Of a DNA stretch of 64,000 nucleotides, positions 7,876 to 63,135 are shown piece by piece. This DNA is from Octopus vulgaris (Eukaryota). The stretch is taken from positions 46,252,001-46,316,000 of the forward strand of contig OX597817.1 in NCBI GenBank assembly GCA_951406725.2. The letters are read 5' to 3'. Under the pieces are notes generated by a model. The model had not been told where the DNA came from and ran no database searches. It saw only the letters and a list, made by a program, of their open reading frames with translations. The translations under genes and the position numbers were made by a program. The first letter of the stretch is position 1. Every line of letters starts with the position of its first letter.

Positions 7876-8752
7876 TTATATGTTTGAGTTTGCTTCGTAT
7901 TTGTACAAGTTGGCTCTAAGTCTCACCCAGAGACCCCAAGAGACAAGTTAAAAGTTCCTGATGGTGTTATGCCTAGGGTGTTATATATTTAGATTTGCAC
8001 AAAGTATTATTCTAGGAAATGTTTAAGAAAACATAAGAAAATTATAATCTTTTTTTAATTTTGAGATTACATAGTATTTACGTAGGATATGAGTAGTTCC
8101 CATGAGCACTACCTTTTGAATTTCTGCAATTTGGGGGTTTCCTGGTATCTGAGCTAGGTAGCAATCAGACCCTTTTTGCTGGGTCCCTAATGACAACAGG
8201 CATTGTTTTAGTTTTGAGGTTCCACATTTTGCCAATTTCTATTTCAAGATCTTTATACTTGCTCAGTTTTTGGTAGGTGTAGATGCATACATTTATGTCG
8301 ATTGGGACAGTCATATCAATGAGGAGGCATGATTTTTGTCTCAAGTCCTTTAATATAATGTCTGGCTTATTCGCATCTCTTTTTCTGTCAGTTTGAACGG
8401 TGAAGTTAGGGAGGAGTGAGATGTAACCATTTTCAAGCACTGGAAATGGTTTGTGTTCCCACCAGATTTTTCCATGTGGTATGACCAGGATTTTTTTGCA
8501 AATTACCCAGTGAATATATTGTACTGCAATATCATGCCTTTTCAGATACTCTGTAGGCGCAAGAAGACTGCAGATAGAGACAACATGATCAATGGTTTCA
8601 TTTTCTTGTTTACATACACGACATGTTGGGCTATTGTCGTTTTTTAATATGTTAGCCTGATAGCTCCTTGTAGGTAGACATTGATCTTAGGCTGCTATGA
8701 TAAACCCTTTTGTTTCTGATTTTAAACCAGAAATACTATTGATGGATAAGGG

Positions 8753-8819
<67 letters not shown>

Positions 8820-9775
8820 GATCAATTCTTGAGAACATGTGGTTCAGCTTGTACACAATCACTATGTCCAGCTTCTTGTGCCCTAACACCTGGTCTTTTT
8901 GGATTGGGAAATCCTACAGGATTTTGCAGGTCGCCGACTGTACATTTCTCCAAGTTTCGTGCTTATACCATGTCTTGCCTTTCTCTAGACCTCATTTTTC
9001 ATAACGGTCCAAATGTAGCACTTGTCGCCACAACATACAATGGTTTTGGGCAAGTCTAGTACACATTATTTACATTCGACGGATACTTGTCCTCATCTTG
9101 TTTGTTGTTAACACAACGTTTCGGCTGATATACCCTCCAGCCTTCATCAGGTGTCTTGGGGAAATTTCGAACCTTGGTTCCCCTTCCTAAGGTATTTTTC
9201 GATGTTATTATTATTATTATCATTATTATTATTATTATCATTATTCAGTAGTTTTATTTTTTATATCGTGCTTTCGCTTCAGTACCGAGTGCAGCTCTGT
9301 GTACCTTGGGCATGTGCTGTGATTTGTTGTGATGCTCTGATGGTTATTGTATGGAAATAGTTCTGCGTAGGATGTGTGCAGTGCTTAGTAGTACAATTTT
9401 CTGTATGTTATATATGTTTGTAAGTCCTGGTGTTTTTGTTATGTATTTGTCTGAATATTTTTTATCATGCCTAATGCACCTATTATGATAGGAATTGTTT
9501 CTGTTTTTAAATTCCACATTCTGGTTACTTCTATTTCCAGGTCTTTGTATTTTGAAAGTTTCTCCATTTCTTTTAGAGACACGTTGTCATCCGCTGGTAT
9601 TGATACATCAATTAGAAAACATTTTTTTCTTCATGATCTCTCACAACAATATCTGGTCTGTTGGCCTTAATTTCGCTATCTGTGTGTATTGGCATATCCC
9701 AGAGTATGGTTGCTTTCTCGTTTTCTGTGACCTTTTCTGGTGTGTGCCTATACCATCTTTTTTCTGTTGTTATTA
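6843..9775 (-). mobile_element. Stack of about five R4/Dong-like (RLE-type) non-LTR retrotransposon 3' fragments separated by (TAA)n/(TTA)n
   Basis: Minus-strand translations include QTDRKRDANKPDIILKD...CLLIDMTVP...KLSKYKDLEIEIGKMWNLKT, IQKVVLMGTTHILRK and LWDFPIQKDQVLGHKKLDIVIV, typical of PD-(D/E)xK endonuclease C-termini. Fragments at ~6843-7190, 7355-7705, 7880-8750, 8820-9055 and 9243-9775. Confidence 0.8.
9057..9205 (-). mobile_element. Short repeat carrying a minimal hammerhead (9110-9155); second copy at 15320-15490
   Basis: Minus strand: GACAC-CTGATGA-A-GGCTG gagggtatat CAGCC-GAAA-CG-TT-GTGTT. Helices I and II pair; helix III is reduced to palindromic ACGT. Confidence 0.7.
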
Positions 9776-9779
9776 TTAT

Positions 9780-9875
<96 letters not shown>

Positions 9876-9898
9876 CAGCAGCAGTAGTAGTAGTAGTG

Positions 9899-9933
<35 letters not shown>

Positions 9934-29357: not shown

Positions 29358-29399
<42 letters not shown>

Positions 29400-29627
29400 A
29401 TTAATCAATATAGGGTGGCAAAAAAAAAATTGTAGAATTATTTTTGCCACCAGCGGCCTAGTGGGAAAAAATTAAATAGTCATAGACCATTTTTAAGTTC
29501 AACATCAACAATCAAGGAACGGCCATAATAGGCCATTCACCCACTAGAAATAACAGCCAAAGCTTCAACCGCAAATAAAAATTAATTCCGTAAACCAGGA
29601 GAAAATTTAAAAAACATTTACCCTGTA

Positions 29628-29734
29628 ATTTCTTATACGATGCACCGTTTCATCTGCTGATTAATGGTAAACTAACCTGATTAAATTAATTCAAGCCAAT
29701 CTTCCATAGGCCCTCAGATTCTTCAGTAAGAAAT
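29628..29734 (-). ncRNA. Type I hammerhead ribozyme, array copy
   Basis: Reverse complement reads ATTTCTTA-CTGAAGA-ATCTG...CAGAT-GAAA-CGGTGCATCG-TA-TAAGAAAT. Confidence 0.85.
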
Positions 29735-30094
29735 AGCCCAAGTCGGAACAGATATTTTCACGAGGCATTTCCGACCTTGCCAAGGTTATATCTGACCTAA
29801 AATTTTCAAATCGTCGCACTCGCGCCAAATTTATCGGCAGCAAATAAGTATAAGCCGTCGATTCCATTACGGAATTAACCAGAAAATTCATAATTAATCA
29901 ATATAGGGTGCCAAAAAAAATTTTGTAGAATTCTTTTGCCACCAGCGGCCTAGTGGGAGAAAATTAAATAGTCATAGACCATTTTTAAGTTCAACATCAA
30001 CAATCACCCACTAGAAATAACAGCCAAAGCTTCAACCGCAAATAAAAATTAATTCCGTAAACCAGGAGAAAATTTAAAAAACATTTACCCTGTA

Positions 30095-30201
30095 ATTTCT
30101 TATACGATGCACCGTTTCATCTGCTGATTAATGGTAAACTAACCTGATTAAATTGAATCAAGCCAATCTTCCATAGGCCCTCAGATTCTTCAGTAAGAAA
30201 T
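30095..30201 (-). ncRNA. Type I hammerhead ribozyme, array copy
   Basis: Same core and helices as 31298-31404, on the minus strand. Confidence 0.85.
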
Positions 30202-30821
30202 AGCCCAAGTCGGAACAGATATTTTCACGAGGCATTTCCGACCTTGCCAAGATTATATCTGACCTAAAATTTTCAAATCGTCGCACTCGCGCCAAATTTA
30301 TCGGCAGCAAATAAATATAAGCCGTCGATTCCATTACGGAATTAACCAGAAAATTCATAATTAATCAATATAGGGTGGCAAAAAAATTTTGTAGAATTTT
30401 TTTGCCACCAGCGGCCTAGTGGGAAAAAATTAAATAGTCATAGACCATTTTTAAGTTCAACATCAACAATCAAGGAACGGCCATAATAGGCCATTCACCC
30501 ACTAGAAATAACAGCCAAAGCTTCAACCGCAAATAAAAATTAATTCCGTAAACCAGGAGAAAATTTAAAAAACATTTACCTTGTAATTTCTTATACGATG
30601 CACATATGTATATGTATATATATATATCAACAATCAAGGAACGGCCATAATAGGCCAGCGGCCTAGTGGGAAAAAAATTAAATAGTCATAGACCATTTTT
30701 AAGTTCAACATCAACAATCAAGGAACGGCCATAATAGGCCATTCACCCACTAGAAATAACAGCCAAAGCTTCAACCGCAACTAAAAATTAATTCCGTAAA
30801 CCAGGAGAAAATTACCTTGTA

Positions 30822-30928
30822 ATTTCTTATACGATGCACCGTTTCATCTGCTGATTAATGGTAAACTAACCTGATTAAATTAAATCAAGCCAATCTTCCA
30901 TAGGCCCTCAGATTCTTCAGTAAGAAAT
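30822..30928 (-). ncRNA. Type I hammerhead ribozyme, array copy
   Basis: Same core and helices as 31298-31404, on the minus strand. Confidence 0.85.
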
Positions 30929-31297
30929 AGCCCAAGTCGGAACAGATATTTTCACGAGGCATTTCCGACCTTGCCAAGGTTATATCTGACCTAAAATTTT
31001 CAAATCGTCGCACTCGCGCCAAATTTATCGGCAGCAAATAAATATAAGCCGTCGATTCCATTACGGAATTAACCAGAAAATTCATAATTAATCAATATAG
31101 GGTGGCAAAAAAAAATTTTGTAGAATTTTTTTGCCACCAGCGGCCTAGTGGGAAAAAATTAAATAGTCATAGACCATTTTTAAGTTCAACATCAACAATC
31201 AAGGAACGGCCATAATAGGCCATTCACCCACTAGAAATAACAGCCAAAGCTTCAACCGCAAATATGCCTCGTGAAAATATCTGTTCCGACTTGGGCT

Positions 31298-31404
31298 ATT
31301 TCTTACTGAAGAATCTGAGGGCCTATGGAAGATTGGCTTGATTTAATTTAATCAGGTTAGTTTACCATTAATCAGCAGATGAAACGGTGCATCGTATAAG
31401 AAAT
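31298..31404 (+). ncRNA. Type I hammerhead ribozyme (predicted cleavage 3' of GUA at 31394-31396)
   Basis: Helix I ATTTCTTA(31298-305)/TAAGAAAT(31397-404), 8 perfect bp. Core CTGAAGA(31306-312). Helix II ATCTG(31313-317)/CAGAT(31376-380). GAAA(31381-384). Helix III A-U, C-G, G-C, G-U closing a TGCA loop. Cleavage triplet GUA. Confidence 0.88.
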
Positions 31405-31789
31405 TACAGGATAAATGTTTTTTAAATTTTCTCCTGGTTTACGGAATTAATTTTTATTTGCGGTTGAAGCTTTGGCTGTTATTTCTAGTGGGTGAATGGC
31501 CTATTATGGCCGTTCCTTGATTGTTGATGTTGAACTTAAAAATGGTCTATGACTATTTAATTTTTTCCCACTAGGCCGCTGGTGGCAAAAAAATTCTACA
31601 AAATTTTTTTTGCCACCCTATATTGATTAATTATGAATTTTCTGGTTAATTCCGTAATGGAATCGACGGCTTATATTTATTTGCTGCCGATAAATTTGGC
31701 ACGAGTGCGACGATTTGAAAATTTTAGGTCAGATATAACCTTGGCAAGGTCGGAAATGCCTCGTGAAAATATCTGTTCCGACTTGGGCT

Positions 31790-31896
31790 ATTTCTTACTG
31801 AAGAATCTGAGGGCCTATGGAAGATTGGCTTGAATTAATTTAATCAGGTTAGTTTACCATTAATCAGCAGATGAAACGGTGCATCGTATAAGAAAT
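31790..31896 (+). ncRNA. Type I hammerhead ribozyme, array copy (GUA 31886-31888)
   Basis: Identical core and helices, 492 bp downstream of the previous copy. Confidence 0.87.
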
Positions 31897-32281
31897 TACA
31901 GGGTAAATGTTTTTTAAATTTTCTCCTGGTTTACGGAATTAATTTTTATTTGCGGTTGAAGCTTTGGCTGTTATTTCTAGTGGGTGAATGGCCTATTATG
32001 GCGGTTCCTTGATTGTTGATGTTGAACTTAAAAATGGTCTATGACTATTTAATTTTTTCCCACTAGGCCGCTGGTGGCAAAAAAATTCTACAAAATTTTT
32101 TTTGCCACCCTATATTGATTAATTATGAATTTTCTGGTTAATTCCGTAATGGAATCGACGGCTTATATTTATTTGCTGCCGATAAATTTGGCGCGAGTGC
32201 GACGATTTGAAAATTTTAGGTCAGATATAACCTTGGCAAGGTCGGAAATGCCTCGTGAAAATATCTGTTCCGACTTGGGCT

Positions 32282-32388
32282 ATTTCTTACTGAAGAATCT
32301 GAAGGCCTATGGAAGATTGGCTTGATTTAATTTAATCAGGTTAGTTTAGCATTAATCAGCAGATGAAACGGTGCATCGTATAAGAAAT
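32282..32388 (+). ncRNA. Type I hammerhead ribozyme, array copy (GUA 32378-32380)
   Basis: Identical core; substitutions seen only in the helix II extension. Confidence 0.87.
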
Positions 32389-32772
32389 TACAGGGTAAAT
32401 GTTTTTTAAATTTTCTCCTGGTTTACGGAATTAATTTTTATTTGCGGTTGAAGCTTTGGCTGTTATTTCTAGTGGGTGAATGGCCTATTATGGCCGTTCC
32501 TTGATTGTTGATGTTGAACTTAAAAATGGTCTATGACTATTTAATTTTTTCCCACTAGGCCGCTGGTGGCAAAAAAATTCTACAAAATTTTTTTGGCACC
32601 CTATATTGATTAATTATGAATTTTCTGGTTAATTCCATAATGGAATCGACGGCTTATATTTATTTGCTGCCGATAAATTTGGCGCGAGTGCGACGATTTG
32701 AAAATTTTAGGTCAGATATAACCTTGGCAAGGTCGGAAATGCCTCGTGAAAATATCTGTTCCGACTTGGGCT

Positions 32773-32879
32773 ATTTCTTACTGAAGAATCTGAGGGCCTA
32801 TGGAAGATTGGCTTGATTTAATTTAATCAGGTTAGTTTACCATTAATCAGCAGATGAAACGGTGCATCGTATAAGAAAT
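32773..32879 (+). ncRNA. Type I hammerhead ribozyme, array copy (GUA 32869-32871)
   Basis: Identical core and helices. Confidence 0.87.
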
Positions 32880-33264
32880 TACAGGGTAAATGTTTTTTAA
32901 ATTTTCTCCTGGTTTACGGAATTAATTTTTATTTGCGGTTGAAGCTTTGGCTGTTATTTCTAGTGGGTGAATGGCCTATTATGGCCGTTCCTTGATTGTT
33001 GATGTTGAACTTAAAAATGGTCTATGACTATTTAATTTTTTCCCACTAGGCCGCTGGTGGCAAAAAAATTCTACAAAATTTTTTTTGGCACCCTATATTG
33101 ATTAATTATGAATTTTCTGGTTAATTCCGTAATGGAATCGACGGCTTATATTTATTTGCTGCCGATAAATTTGGCGCGAGTGCGACGATTTGAAAATTTT
33201 AGGTCAGATATAACCTTGGCAAGGTCGGAAATGTCTCGTGAAAATATCTGTTCCGACTTGGGCT

Positions 33265-33371
33265 ATTTCTTACTGAAGAATCTGAGGGCCTATGGAAGAT
33301 TGGCTTGATTTAATTTAATCAGGTTAGTTTACCATTAATCAGCAGATGAAACGGTGCATCGTATAAGAAAT
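33265..33371 (+). ncRNA. Type I hammerhead ribozyme, array copy (GUA 33361-33363)
   Basis: Identical core and helices; followed by a variant unit. Confidence 0.87.
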
Positions 33372-33991
33372 TACAAGGTAATTTTCTCCTGGTTTACGGA
33401 ATTAATTTTTAGTTGCGGTTGAAGCTTTGGCTGTTATTTCTAGTGGGTGAATGGCCTATTATGGCCGTTCCTTGATTGTTGATGTTGAACTTAAAAATGG
33501 TCTATGACTATTTAATTTTTTTCCCACTAGGCCGCTGGCCTATTATGGCCGTTCCTTGATTGTTGATATATATATATACATATACATATGTGCATCGTAT
33601 AAGAAATTACAAGGTAAATGTTTTTTAAATTTTCTCCTGGTTTACGGAATTAATTTTTATTTGCGGTTGAAGCTTTGGCTGTTATTTCTAGTGGGTGAAT
33701 GGCCTATTATGGCCGTTCCTTGATTGTTGATGTTGAACTTAAAAATGGTCTATGACTATTTAATTTTTTCCCACTAGGCCGCTGGTGGCAAAAAATTCTA
33801 CAAAATTTTTTTTGCCACCCTATATTGATTAATTATGAATTTTCTGGTTAATTCCGTAATGGAATCGACGGCTTATATTTATTTGCTGCCGATAAATTTG
33901 GCGCGAGTGCGACGATTTGAAAATTTTAGGTCAGATATAACCTTGGCAAGGTCGGAAATGCCTCGTGAAAATATCTGTTCCGACTTGGGCT

Positions 33992-34098
33992 ATTTCTTAC
34001 TGAAGAATCTGAGGGCCTATGGAAGATTGGCTTGATTTAATTTAATCAGGTTAGTTTACCATTAATCAGCAGATGAAACGGTGCATCGTATAAGAAAT
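33992..34098 (+). ncRNA. Type I hammerhead ribozyme, array copy (GUA 34088-34090)
   Basis: Identical core and helices. Confidence 0.87.
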
Positions 34099-34317
34099 TA
34101 CAGGGTAAATGTTTTTTAAATTTTCTCCTGGTTTACGGAATTAATTTTTATTTGCGGTTGAAGCTTTGTCTGTTATTTCTAGTGGGTGAATGGCCTATTA
34201 TGGCCGTTCCTTGATTGTTGATATATATATATACATATACATATGTGCACATATAGAATATATACAATACTTATGTATATATATATATTATATGTATATA
34301 CACTCATGTATATTATA

Positions 34318-35172
34318 TTAGGTCGTCAAGAATGAAATTTGAAGAAAAGAAAAACATGATTGCTAATGATTTATAAATACAAGGAATATTTGTATTCGTC
34401 AAAGTATGCACCCGTATTGTTAATATAATTTTGCTATTTAAGCGGTAGCTTGTCCAGTCCGGAATAGTAAAAGTCTGGAAATCTAGAGTCAATAAAATCT
34501 TGGAAGGCCTATTTTACAACATCATCGGAATTAAATTATTTTGCAAGAAAGAACTCATATTTCAGAACTGAACGTATTTCCGACTTATCCATCTCTAAAC
34601 AAAAATAGAAAAAAAAAAACGATTTATAAATCTCTCTCTATATAAACGGCAGTTTGTCTGTGTGTGTTTCTGTGTGTCTGTTTGGTTGTACCCTCACTCT
34701 GAGCACGGCTTTCAACCGATTCTGATGAAACTTGACACACACATAGCCCAATGTCATAATTCAAAACTAACGCAGTGAAAATTTTGAAAAGTTCCCCCAG
34801 TTCTGAAAAAGACCGATAAATTCGACATGGGGTCAACAATCAAAAACACAAACCACAGATGGTCTAGGGGACGCAACTCGACCTTTTTAACTATCAAAAA
34901 AAAATTTACCATAATTTTTTTTCCCATTTTTTTCCTATTTTTTGGCTATAACTCTCTAAAAATGCTTTATAGTTATTTTCCTTACAAACCCGAGCAACGC
35001 CGGGCGATACTGCTAGTACTTTATAAAGCGCGAAATGAGTTACAATAAAGAAATAGATGTGTCAGCTTTCTAACAAAAAATAAAGATTGTCAAAATATAA
35101 TAATGGCGCAAAATAAGTAGCCGTCAAAGTTTACCATATAACTTACAACAAATTTCGTACTTGACGACCTAA
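34318..35172 (-). mobile_element. Internally deleted mariner element
   Basis: TIRs TTAGGTCGTCAAGAATGAAATTTG / CAAATTTCGTACTTGACGACCTAA with TA on both sides. Minus translation AFQDFIDSRFPDFYYSGLDKLPLK*QNYINNTGAYFDE is a mariner C-terminus. Confidence 0.85.
34631..35016 (+). mobile_element. Non-autonomous Helitron nested in the mariner relic
   Basis: A|TC start; ends CCCGAGCAACGCCGGG...GCTAG|T. The 3' ~130 bp is shared with 26684-27078. Confidence 0.8.
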
Positions 35173-35189
35173 TATATATATATATATTG

Positions 35190-61425: not shown

Positions 61426-62938
61426 TAAACTTAGATAAACTTAGATATGTTTCGACCAAAGATTGGTCCAGGCCATGTCTAACTTAATAGCACCACCTGA
61501 TAGGATTATTCGAATCCTGTTTAAGTCAAGTTTTGTTCAAGTCAAGTTTTGTTCAGTGAGTTCTTGTTGGGTGAGTTGTATCCAATTATGGGTGGCTTAT
61601 CTGGTATTCTTTGAAGGAATCTATCCAGACTCTGTTTAAAGTTGATTGGATCCTTTTCCTCTTTGATCTCTCTCGGGACAATGTTAAATAGGGCAGGGCC
61701 TGTTGAGGAAAATAAATTATGTTGCAGTGTACATGTATGTTGTGATCTTGAATTGGTCAGGGGACGTATAGCCCGTGGTCCAAGTCTTGGATGAACCTTG
61801 AAGCTAATGTTTAGGTCGTTTGGGCATAGTTGGCGGTATATTTTCCACATCGTACAAATGATGTACCGCTCACGGCGACGCTGGAGGGAGTAAAGTTTCA
61901 AGGCTTTAAGGCGATCCCAATAATCGAGAGCAGCCATGCCTTCAATTCGTTTAGTGAGTGCCCTCTGGGGTGACTCAATTCTGGAGATGTTTTGTCTTGT
62001 GTGAGGAGACCACAGTGGGCAGCAGTATTCAAGATGTGGCCGTACAAAGGAGGAAAAAAGTGGTATGATGACACCTTGTTCTCTGGACCGGAAAGTTCCT
62101 AAGATCCAGCAACTCATCCTACGAGCTATATCGACCTTCTTGTTGATGTGTGCACTCCAACTGAGATCGTCATCAACAATTACACCCAGGTCTCTGATAT
62201 TGTTAGAGGTTGTGAGCGGTTCCCCTGAAGGAAGAGAGTATGGCTGTTTTAGTGAGGAGTTTCTTCCAAAATGCATCAGCTCGAATTTTCCCTCGTTCAG
62301 TTGCATTTTGTTTCTGTCTGCCCATTGACTCACATCATATAGATCAGACTGGAGTTGAGTTCGGTCTGCTTCTTCATTGACGATTTGCTGGAGCTTGGTG
62401 TCATCAGCAAATATTTTCACTTTGCAGTAATGTACGACACTGGAAAGGTTGTTTATGTAGATTATGAAGAGTAGCGGACCCAAGACAGTCCCCTGGGGGA
62501 CACCGCTGGTGACTTTTGCTGGGCTTGAGTGGACTCCATCAACTACAACATGTTGTGTTCTATTCGCCAGGAAATACTTGATCCAGTGTAGAACTTTTCC
62601 ACGGATTCCAACATTTGCCAATTTTGAGAGTAGGATATTATGGTCTACCCTGTTGAACGCTTTACTGAAGTCAAGATATATGACATCAGAGTTCGAACCT
62701 GTTCCCAAGGCTTTGAGTACATCTTCAATGTGGTGTAAGATCTGTGTTAGACAGTCCCTGTCACAGCGAAAGCCATGCTGATTTGCATTTAGGAGTTTCT
62801 GGGTCTCCAGGAAGTCAGCCAACCTTGATGTTAACACTCTTTCAAACACTTTGATGATGTGGGAGGTGAGTGAGATTGGGCGATAGTTGAGTGCGAGGGA
62901 TCTGTTTCCCTGTTTGAAAACCGGGATGACTGACTGGG

Positions 62939-62940
<2 letters not shown>
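61426..62940 (-). mobile_element. 5'-truncated CR1-group LINE with intact 3' end
   Basis: RT ORF plus a 3' UTR stem-loop GACC aatcttt GGTC-GAAAC and terminal tandem (ATCTAAGTTT)x2. Sits in (TA)n. Confidence 0.88.
61542..62940 (-). CDS. Non-LTR retrotransposon reverse transcriptase (CR1-like ORF2 C-terminal part, 5'-truncated, open frame)
   Basis: VIPVFKQG..NYRPISLTS upstream and in frame with the 435 aa ORF. Motifs QHGFR, YLDFSKAF, GVPQGTVLGPLLF, FADD, DLGV, RPHLEY and LYSLQRRRERY. Confidence 0.9.
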
Positions 62941-63004
<64 letters not shown>

Positions 63005-63135
63005 ATCACTAGCCATTACAGGCACACTGAAGGAAAACAAGAAGAGAAGAAATGTGTGTAATGGCTAGTGATATACATATATATATACATATATATATAT
63101 ATGTATGTATACGTGTATATATATATATATATATG

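Follow-up and report, generated by a model that had tools for sequence, protein, structure and literature searches.

Head-to-head insertion of a hammerhead-bearing repeat in the Octopus vulgaris genome: a candidate retrozyme with the insertion anatomy of Penelope-like elements

Within a 64,000-nucleotide stretch of the Octopus vulgaris genome (assembly GCA_951406725.2, contig OX597817.1, positions 46,252,001 to 46,316,000 of the forward strand; hereafter the window), positions 29361-34300 hold a repeat, with its simple-sequence flanks, whose units carry a predicted type I hammerhead ribozyme. A preliminary description, made from the sequence alone, had presented this locus as a 492-bp tandem array of a candidate retrozyme. 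Units are numbered here from the first base past the predicted cut (q1, window position 31397), so that one unit is q1-492. Although the unit length stands (plus-strand units are 491-492 nt), the plain tandem arrangement does not, as the locus consists of two head-to-head arms inserted in (TA)n. The 5' ends of both arms meet in mid-array at 31264 and the 3' ends face outward into (AT)n; the (TA)n setting first reported is thus borne out at both ends of the array. The features of the locus are as follows.

29361-29396, no strand: (AT)n target, left flank
29397-31264, minus: left arm, in inverted orientation and cut short on its 5' side at q59; it terminates 3' at start site 2 (q238 at 29397)
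29414-29451, minus: conserved hairpin (q185-221) ending 17 nt short of start site 2, with compensatory changes relative to a sister family
29628-29734, minus: type I hammerhead motif
30095-30201, minus: type I hammerhead motif; the adjoining unit, 29636-30102, has a 25-nt deletion
30594-30829, minus: rearranged cassette, inverted copy, with the flank copy at 30599-30625
30822-30928, minus: type I hammerhead motif
31264-34222, plus: right arm, running from q360 at the head-to-head junction (31264) to q132, which is start site 1, at 34222
31298-31404, plus: type I hammerhead motif, predicted cut 31396/31397
31397-31888, plus: full monomer of 492 nt, the reference unit; the "tail" between the two start sites is 31529-31634
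31790-31896, plus: type I hammerhead motif, predicted cut 31888/31889
31889-33363, plus: three more full monomers, of 492, 491, and 492 nt
32282-32388, plus: type I hammerhead motif, predicted cut 32380/32381
32773-32879, plus: type I hammerhead motif, predicted cut 32871/32872
33265-33371, plus: type I hammerhead motif, predicted cut 33363/33364
33364-33599, plus: locus-specific cassette made of a unit start, q29-186, q101-132, a 27-nt copy of the right flank (33568-33594), and q483-492
33600-34090, plus: full monomer of 491 nt
33992-34098, plus: type I hammerhead motif, predicted cut 34090/34091
34188-34209, plus: conserved hairpin (q98-119) that lies 13 nt ahead of start site 1, with compensatory changes relative to the sister family
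34223-34300, no strand: AT-repeat target, right flank; the 27 nt found again in the cassette come from 34223-34249

The nine complete hammerhead motifs first described, six on the plus strand and three on the minus, are all found where they had been placed, and two extra 3' halves without a full motif lie at 33590 and 30586. Successive predicted cut sites on the plus strand are 492, 492, 491, 492, and 727 nt apart. In each motif, a helix I of 8 bp is followed by the CUGAAGA segment; helix II, 5 bp with an extension of 58 nt, leads to GAAA, and a short helix III, whose loop is palindromic, leads to GUA, so that the hammerhead core (CUGANGA, GAAA, and UH in type I order) is present in all nine. 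The earlier observation that copies differ outside the core was also correct: core, helix I, helix II base, and helix III are identical among the nine, and differences within the motif are confined to the helix II extension. No stop-to-stop open reading frame (ORF) of 90 or more amino acids was found inside the array, in agreement with the statement that no protein is encoded. A 66-codon frame in the unit was rejected as coding; it is broken in four of 10 readable loci.

A rearranged cassette, present in both arms, combines two internal jumps with 27 nt from the right flank of the locus itself, and the genome has its q186/q101 junction at two places, each within this locus. The segment 30001-31264 is an inverted copy of 32930-34192 (99.3% identical). 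The cassette would have arisen by local template switching or self-insertion, and its duplication was probably DNA-templated. An assembly artefact behind the inverted arms was set aside, as dozens of loci are built alike and the two arms in the window have private differences.

Counts over the 2.8-Gb genome place this locus in a dispersed family. A motif search returned 2,525 candidates, the best 40 of which, when scored, were 98-100% identical. Exact matches to the ribozyme 5' half number 2,280, and exact junctions with (AT)n number 237 for q132 (site 1) and 670 for q238 (site 2), with 0 for the controls in each case. Dispersed insertions amount to at least 670, so that the earlier concern over a single isolated locus falls away, and subfamilies range from ~90 to 99% identity. 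Three sets of loci were read: the first 45 of the 237 site-1 junction matches (set A); 20 of the first 24 site-2 junction matches, those outside set A (set B); and nine further loci from the motif search, biased toward long copies (set C). No ORF combining reverse transcriptase (RT) and GIY-YIG domains was found in the array or in 65 anchored loci. The family is thus no autonomous Penelope-like element (PLE), and the suggestion that the monomer might be merely the pseudo-long terminal repeat (pLTR) of one is not borne out in these 65 loci, where no RT body is attached. A sister family (3,181 candidates, units of 472-485 nt) is 65% identical over q1-242. Its sampled loci (L127, L168-L197) are older, with ~90% identity between copies, and have the same two-site design; in one locus (L198) with two copies 4.6 kb apart, no ORF of 110 or more amino acids was found. 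In public sequence data, the octopus unit occurs in 20 rows of seven studies under four organism codes, none of them listed as RNA. In four runs from organisms A and B, three of which were guessed to be RNA, all data are contigs; they cover 24-30 of 30 bins, and one contig spans a cut junction. As the RNA nature of these data is a guess, and contigs do not resolve strand, ends, or circles, neither result was counted as expression.

The ribozyme is under constraint. Its core is retained in 90 of 91 full copies from 74 other loci. Across 50-52 other loci, 11 core positions are invariant while N7 (A in 27, U in 15, C and G in 4 each) and the cut base (A in 42, C in 10), positions at which hammerheads tolerate variation, do vary. 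In the sister family, a core of hammerhead type occupies the corresponding position; its helices differ, position 3 is U in most copies, the cut site is GUC, and helix III is again palindromic but of another sequence. Because the core never varies while N7 and the cut base do, and because the sister family keeps it, the hammerhead is not a chance pattern. Variation in helix III is limited to two central bases, UGCA becoming UAUA, both palindromes, with one intermediate. The calculated energy of its hairpin is -0.2 kcal/mol, compared with -17.5 and -13.6 for the self-duplexes and -7.1 for the intermediate. These palindromes and energies fit double-hammerhead cleavage like that of amphibian repeats, so that the predicted ribozyme would probably cleave as a dimer via helix III, although it may also cleave as a monomer. 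Among 18 chosen, related sequences, 98.6% of helix cells are paired, against at most 48% when slid, and two helix pairs are double-changed, in few events, one of them a helix III pair that exists only in the dimer. Self-cleavage by the predicted hammerhead is likely. A circular fold with z of -4.35 was not taken as evidence, since the antisense strand comes close to it (-3.94).

Reverse transcription of the element does not begin at the cut site; all copies start from one of two fixed points inside the unit, which lie 132 and 238 nt beyond it. Two arms are present in 36 of 45 loci in set A, 12 of 20 in set B, and five of nine in set C, and all 53 of these pair one end at q112-137 with one at q233-242. 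In five loci scored as one-armed, a second arm of the opposite type, very short, is visible by eye. Of four long arrays picked later, two show the same mixed pairing, one carries a short site-2 arm, and one is one-armed. By eye, no site-2/site-2 pair was seen among the first 100 site-2 rows. The sister family gave seven clear mixed pairs, two unclear pairs, and one apparent like pair in 30 loci. Upstream of each start site is a hairpin, in which seven of 17 pairs are double-changed between the two families (in effect a single comparison); in both families, 17 nt separate site 2 from its hairpin. The stretch from q132 to q238 is the "tail" of a PLE, and the full set of PLE-type insertion features is present: fixed 3' ends at two sites, variable 5' truncation, an inverted arm, and a (TA)n target. 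Mobilization by a Penelope-like RT, only supposed in the preliminary description, is now backed by insertion anatomy.

The 5' ends of the arms carry a second signal. Of the 46 first-pass stops in sets A and B, 30 fall in q1-41, a 6.2-fold excess (p 2e-9, arms not independent). With a single arm counted for each locus, those that stop in q1-41 make up 15 of the 53 and 15 of the 44 arms that get that far, against 2.5-5 expected (p ~1e-4 to 1e-8, depending on background). Over all arm ends, 37 of 113 lie in q1-41 and four in the mirror bin, q452-492. The two arms of a locus also behave alike: in 48 two-armed loci, both stop at q1-41 in 12, both cross it in 23, the outcome is mixed in three, and an earlier stop occurs in 10 (Fisher 4e-7 for stopping or crossing together), despite the ~120 and ~215 nt that the two arms have traveled. 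Because both arms stop together just inside the cut site, a shared template of self-cleaved sense RNA is indicated. The pile-up is most simply read as cDNA running off a 5' end made by the ribozyme, with trimming and joining by microhomology afterward.

Other arms cross unit junctions seamlessly, up to nine units. Haplotype patterns from ~80 loci bear on the templates of such arms. Mean divergence within a locus is 0.58%, against 1.2% to the nearest other locus, and is lower in 24 of 32 loci; within-locus divergence is about equal across arms. Variants in 21 loci are singletons in 104 cases and shared in seven, whereas one of four long arrays has five shared and 19 singleton variants. Six consecutive units of 488 nt comprise two distinct sequences. 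Fixed variants private to one array, seen in no other sampled locus, number 11, in eight of 28 loci, and nine of them are on both arms; N7 is uniform in 22 of 23 multi-copy loci (first 100 rows, by eye). In L122:3227-3795, a 241-nt mini-unit (q392-492 plus q1-140) that keeps only the ribozyme and site 1 is repeated on one arm, with full units on the other; it is possibly a minimal replicating unit. The haplotypes, private variants, uniform N7, and mini-unit argue for repeated passage through single monomers, which circles would supply. On analogy and array homogeneity, we lean, by a small margin, toward monomer circles as templates. The original proposal that monomers are re-inserted as multimers via circles is favored by the long arms, but many insertions appear to have been templated by linear, cleaved RNA instead.

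Candidate enzymes are present in the same genome. A GIY-YIG search gave 6,136 candidates; of the best 150, which were scored, 16 lie in a 781-amino acid open frame with RT and GIY-YIG domains. By the cysteine finger ahead of GIY-YIG, this protein is predicted to be of Neptune/Nematis type. Copies of the corresponding PLE family, which is young and autonomous (L076-L087; for example, L081:2239-4584), abut (AT)n either directly or after a 37-nt tail, and the single two-armed copy has one end of each kind. Besides the intact 781-amino acid frame, this family has an upstream frame and partial tandem pLTRs, together with a hammerhead-like motif with a U3-A8 core (by eye). A palindromic hairpin ends ~17 nt before the end of the 781-amino acid PLE tail, as in the retrozyme (also by eye). 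Several further PLE families are present, one of them with a CUGAAGA hammerhead and a tail of ~30 nt. Their number includes a second family (L088, L089, L096, L106, and L107) that has its own hammerhead, with a CUGAAGA core in L106, and two 3' ends ~30-45 nt apart.

In sequence, this family has the defining traits of a metazoan non-LTR retrozyme together with the insertion traits of a PLE-mobilized element, and it is very probably a non-coding, non-autonomous retroelement of that kind copied by a PLE protein. In the cycle that we envisage, arrays would be transcribed on the ribozyme strand, and the type I hammerhead would cut after GUA or GUC, probably as a dimer via its palindromic helix III, as conservation and insertion ends suggest. 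Some monomers may then be ligated into circles, others staying linear or uncut. A GIY-YIG PLE protein would nick both strands of a (TA)n target, and two cDNAs, one per strand and usually from the same RNA, would be primed at q132 and q238, where the observed ends lie. On a cleaved linear RNA both cDNAs would run off near q1, whereas on a circle or an uncut multimer they would read on, the patterns seen being a pile-up in the one case and up to nine units in the other. The two cDNA ends would join by short homology to give a head-to-head array, or, were one cDNA very short or lost, a one-armed copy. In the window, a local template switch, later or concurrent, would have carried 27 nt of the right flank, together with a portion of one arm, over to the other arm. 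A more specific version, which we advance tentatively and at somewhat less than even confidence, is that one protein dimer holds one sense RNA and primes both strands at hairpin-set sites, with cut linear monomers and circles both serving as templates. If so, hammerhead products and circles would be real transposition intermediates in vivo, and self-priming on an antisense template, proposed by Arkhipova in 2013 for head-to-head PLE inversions (PMC3846280, as far as its available text goes), would be displaced as their explanation.

Several observations weigh against this account. No Rfam hammerhead model, a check that the preliminary description had proposed, matched the motif at the gathering score or even at E<=10, the long helix II insert presumably defeating these models. 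For one motif, the structure of minimum free energy lacks helix III and is not exceptional (z = -1.05), so that the ribozyme call rests on pattern and variation. Invariance of the core is by itself insufficient, as 0 of 11 variable positions there against 68 of 443 elsewhere has a chance of ~0.16. Most stops lie at q5-37 rather than at q1, so that trimming must be assumed, and stops on later passes show a weak q1-41 excess (seven of 66, 2.5-fold, p 0.03) that is not expected from circles alone. In eight of 32 loci, including the one in the window, units diverge from each other at least as much as from the nearest other locus, and the differing arms of L113 and L122 imply that two templates occur. 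One site-1/site-1 insertion (L199), outside the sample and among the first 100 site-1 rows, was confirmed. With regard to the enzyme, blastn of the monomer against 30 + 12 + 20 GIY-YIG loci, plus a two-family profile, found no DNA similarity to any PLE end in these 62 of the 6,136 candidates, the only matches being retrozyme pieces (L048 and L104) and one weak match (L053, E 0.005). Tails of PLEs in this genome are ~30-45 nt, compared with 106 nt in the retrozyme. For an anole PLE, Frangieh 2024 describes ribozyme cleavage as dispensable in vitro, with no reads ending at the cut site (PMC11167929). As a separate observation, L199 lies within a duplicated flank of ~100 nt, unlike other loci.

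The same element and enzyme could also operate without circles, all templates being linear, partly cleaved multimer transcripts whose uncut stretches give the long arms, and array homogeneity being inherited from homogeneous source arrays. We consider this doubtful but worth serious attention: it accommodates the later-pass excess (eight of 56 arms), a seven-unit arm that likewise ends near q15, and the use of uncut RNA as the main substrate of the anole PLE in the part of that work available (PMC11167929). Against it, array-wide private variants, the uniform N7 and period, and the L122 mini-unit require repeated single-monomer passage, and first-pass stops in q1-41 exceed later ones (30 of 97 arms versus eight of 56, p 0.03, arms not independent). 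In an unlikely explanation, the pile-up reflects RT stalling at the folded ribozyme, or a microhomology hot spot, with a ribozyme perhaps slow or silent in vivo; against this, a barrier should act equally on all passes. Stalling would suit the clustering of stops at q8-13 and q16-37, just 3' of helix I, and eight of nine predicted dimers from Xenopus went uncleaved according to the available preprint text (bioRxiv 10.64898/2026.07.22.740005). Yet in the unbiased sample eight arms run as far as q1-8, within helix I, and nowhere in the unit is the stop rate lower than across the ribozyme (q411-492).

Two further explanations deny the monomer its independence. Were the unit the pLTR of an unsampled autonomous PLE, copies would be 5'-truncated remnants whose ends behave exactly as PLE ends, as indeed they do; only 62 of the 6,136 GIY-YIG candidates were read, and resemblance to known elements, for the most part PLE ends, is given for 24 of 57 families in Xenopus in the available preprint text (bioRxiv 10.64898/2026.07.22.740005). 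We nevertheless hold this to be improbable, as units abut seamlessly in up to nine copies, only units lie between the ends of the 48 two-armed loci, no PLE body occurs in 17 one-armed loci, and several subfamilies and the sister family retain the monomer form; such a PLE may instead be the ancestral source. Spread of a DNA-level satellite by recombination or extrachromosomal DNA would explain tandem units and agrees with the probably DNA-templated cassette duplication. Opposed to it are RNA-structure covariation, (TA)n targets, and arms whose 3' ends are fixed and paired while their 5' ends vary; it is very improbable, the end pattern having largely refuted it.

With respect to known systems, the kind of element is already known and the one-arm tail is a described PLE trait. 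In tandem type I hammerheads and a palindromic helix III loop, newt satellite 2 and axolotl HHR_Amex1, which cleave as dimers, are the amphibian counterparts; stem III is longer in the octopus family. Tandem type I hammerheads also occur in schistosome Sm-alpha and Dolichopoda pDo500. Metazoan non-LTR retrozymes, in the available text of Cervera and de la Pena 2020 (PMC7229834), are likewise non-coding tandem repeats with GC below 45% and one type I hammerhead per unit, accompanied by PLEs in the same genome, and include a mussel family. Their units of ~170-400 nt contrast with 492 nt and a long helix II extension here, and their circles have been demonstrated, whereas those of the octopus family are proposed. 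The main text of that paper has no mention of "cephalopod," "inverted," or "target site." For vertebrate retrozymes, the available text of a recent preprint by Li, Clavereau, and Pollet (bioRxiv 10.64898/2026.07.22.740005) reaches the same conclusion on PLE dependence from co-occurrence and pLTR similarity in 35 genomes, no mollusc among them, and reports that eight of nine predicted retrozyme dimers failed to cleave in one test; the PLE link in octopus rests on insertion ends, no pLTR homologue having been found in the 62 GIY-YIG loci read, and no insertion-end analysis was met in that text.

Endonuclease-bearing (EN+) PLEs, as described in the accessible parts of reports on anole Poseidon PAc (PMC11167929), rotifer Penelope (PMC3846280), and Naiad/Neptune (PMC8557442), share with the octopus family two internal start sites, a one-arm tail, an inverted 5'-truncated arm, AT-rich or (TA)n targets, and a hammerhead upstream of the start sites. 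Work on the anole PLE places the limits of the tail at two internal RT start sites and finds nicking and extension on each strand of the target (PMC11167929, available text); the inverted 5'-truncated copy, tail, and (TA)n bias are given as PLE features in those parts of PMC8557442 and PMC3846280. The octopus family differs in having no ORF, a tail of 106 rather than 30-40 nt, nearly strict rather than optional pairing, and 5' ends that gather at the cut site. For giant squid, 235 Rfam hammerhead matches are listed, unanalyzed, in the available text of the genome report (PMC6962438). In keeping with the preliminary description, no described octopus or cephalopod family with this sequence was found in the literature; supplements, Repbase, and subscription papers may list one.

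What is new here is the near-strict pairing of start sites and the pile-up at the cut site, which bear on how PLEs make head-to-head inversions with a one-arm tail and on the role of their hammerheads. Copying of retrozyme circles by PLEs has so far been a proposal from co-occurrence and pLTR similarity. Because hundreds of short, young, readable insertions, a 492-nt template, and intact candidate enzymes occur in one genome, each step of the cycle is testable.

Some further features of the unit and the window were seen in passing. At ~31695-31725 (q300-330), a GC-rich box followed by TTTGAA is retained in both the retrozyme and sister families, a pairing that we take to resemble the CDE/CHR cell-cycle promoter element. 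Runs of T on the sense strand argue against read-through by polymerase III. Right of the array, a 17-nt inverted repeat pair (~34315-34331 and 35160-35176, by eye) encloses ~830 nt and is perhaps a small DNA element. A 487-amino acid open frame on the minus strand at 61542-63005, unrelated to the array, encodes a LINE-type reverse transcriptase (RVT_1, E 4e-31) and is possibly a young copy. Frames at 8165-8686 and 9612-9932, both on the minus strand, adjoin trinucleotide repeats and presumably correspond to the C-terminal part of another non-LTR element, which they resemble.

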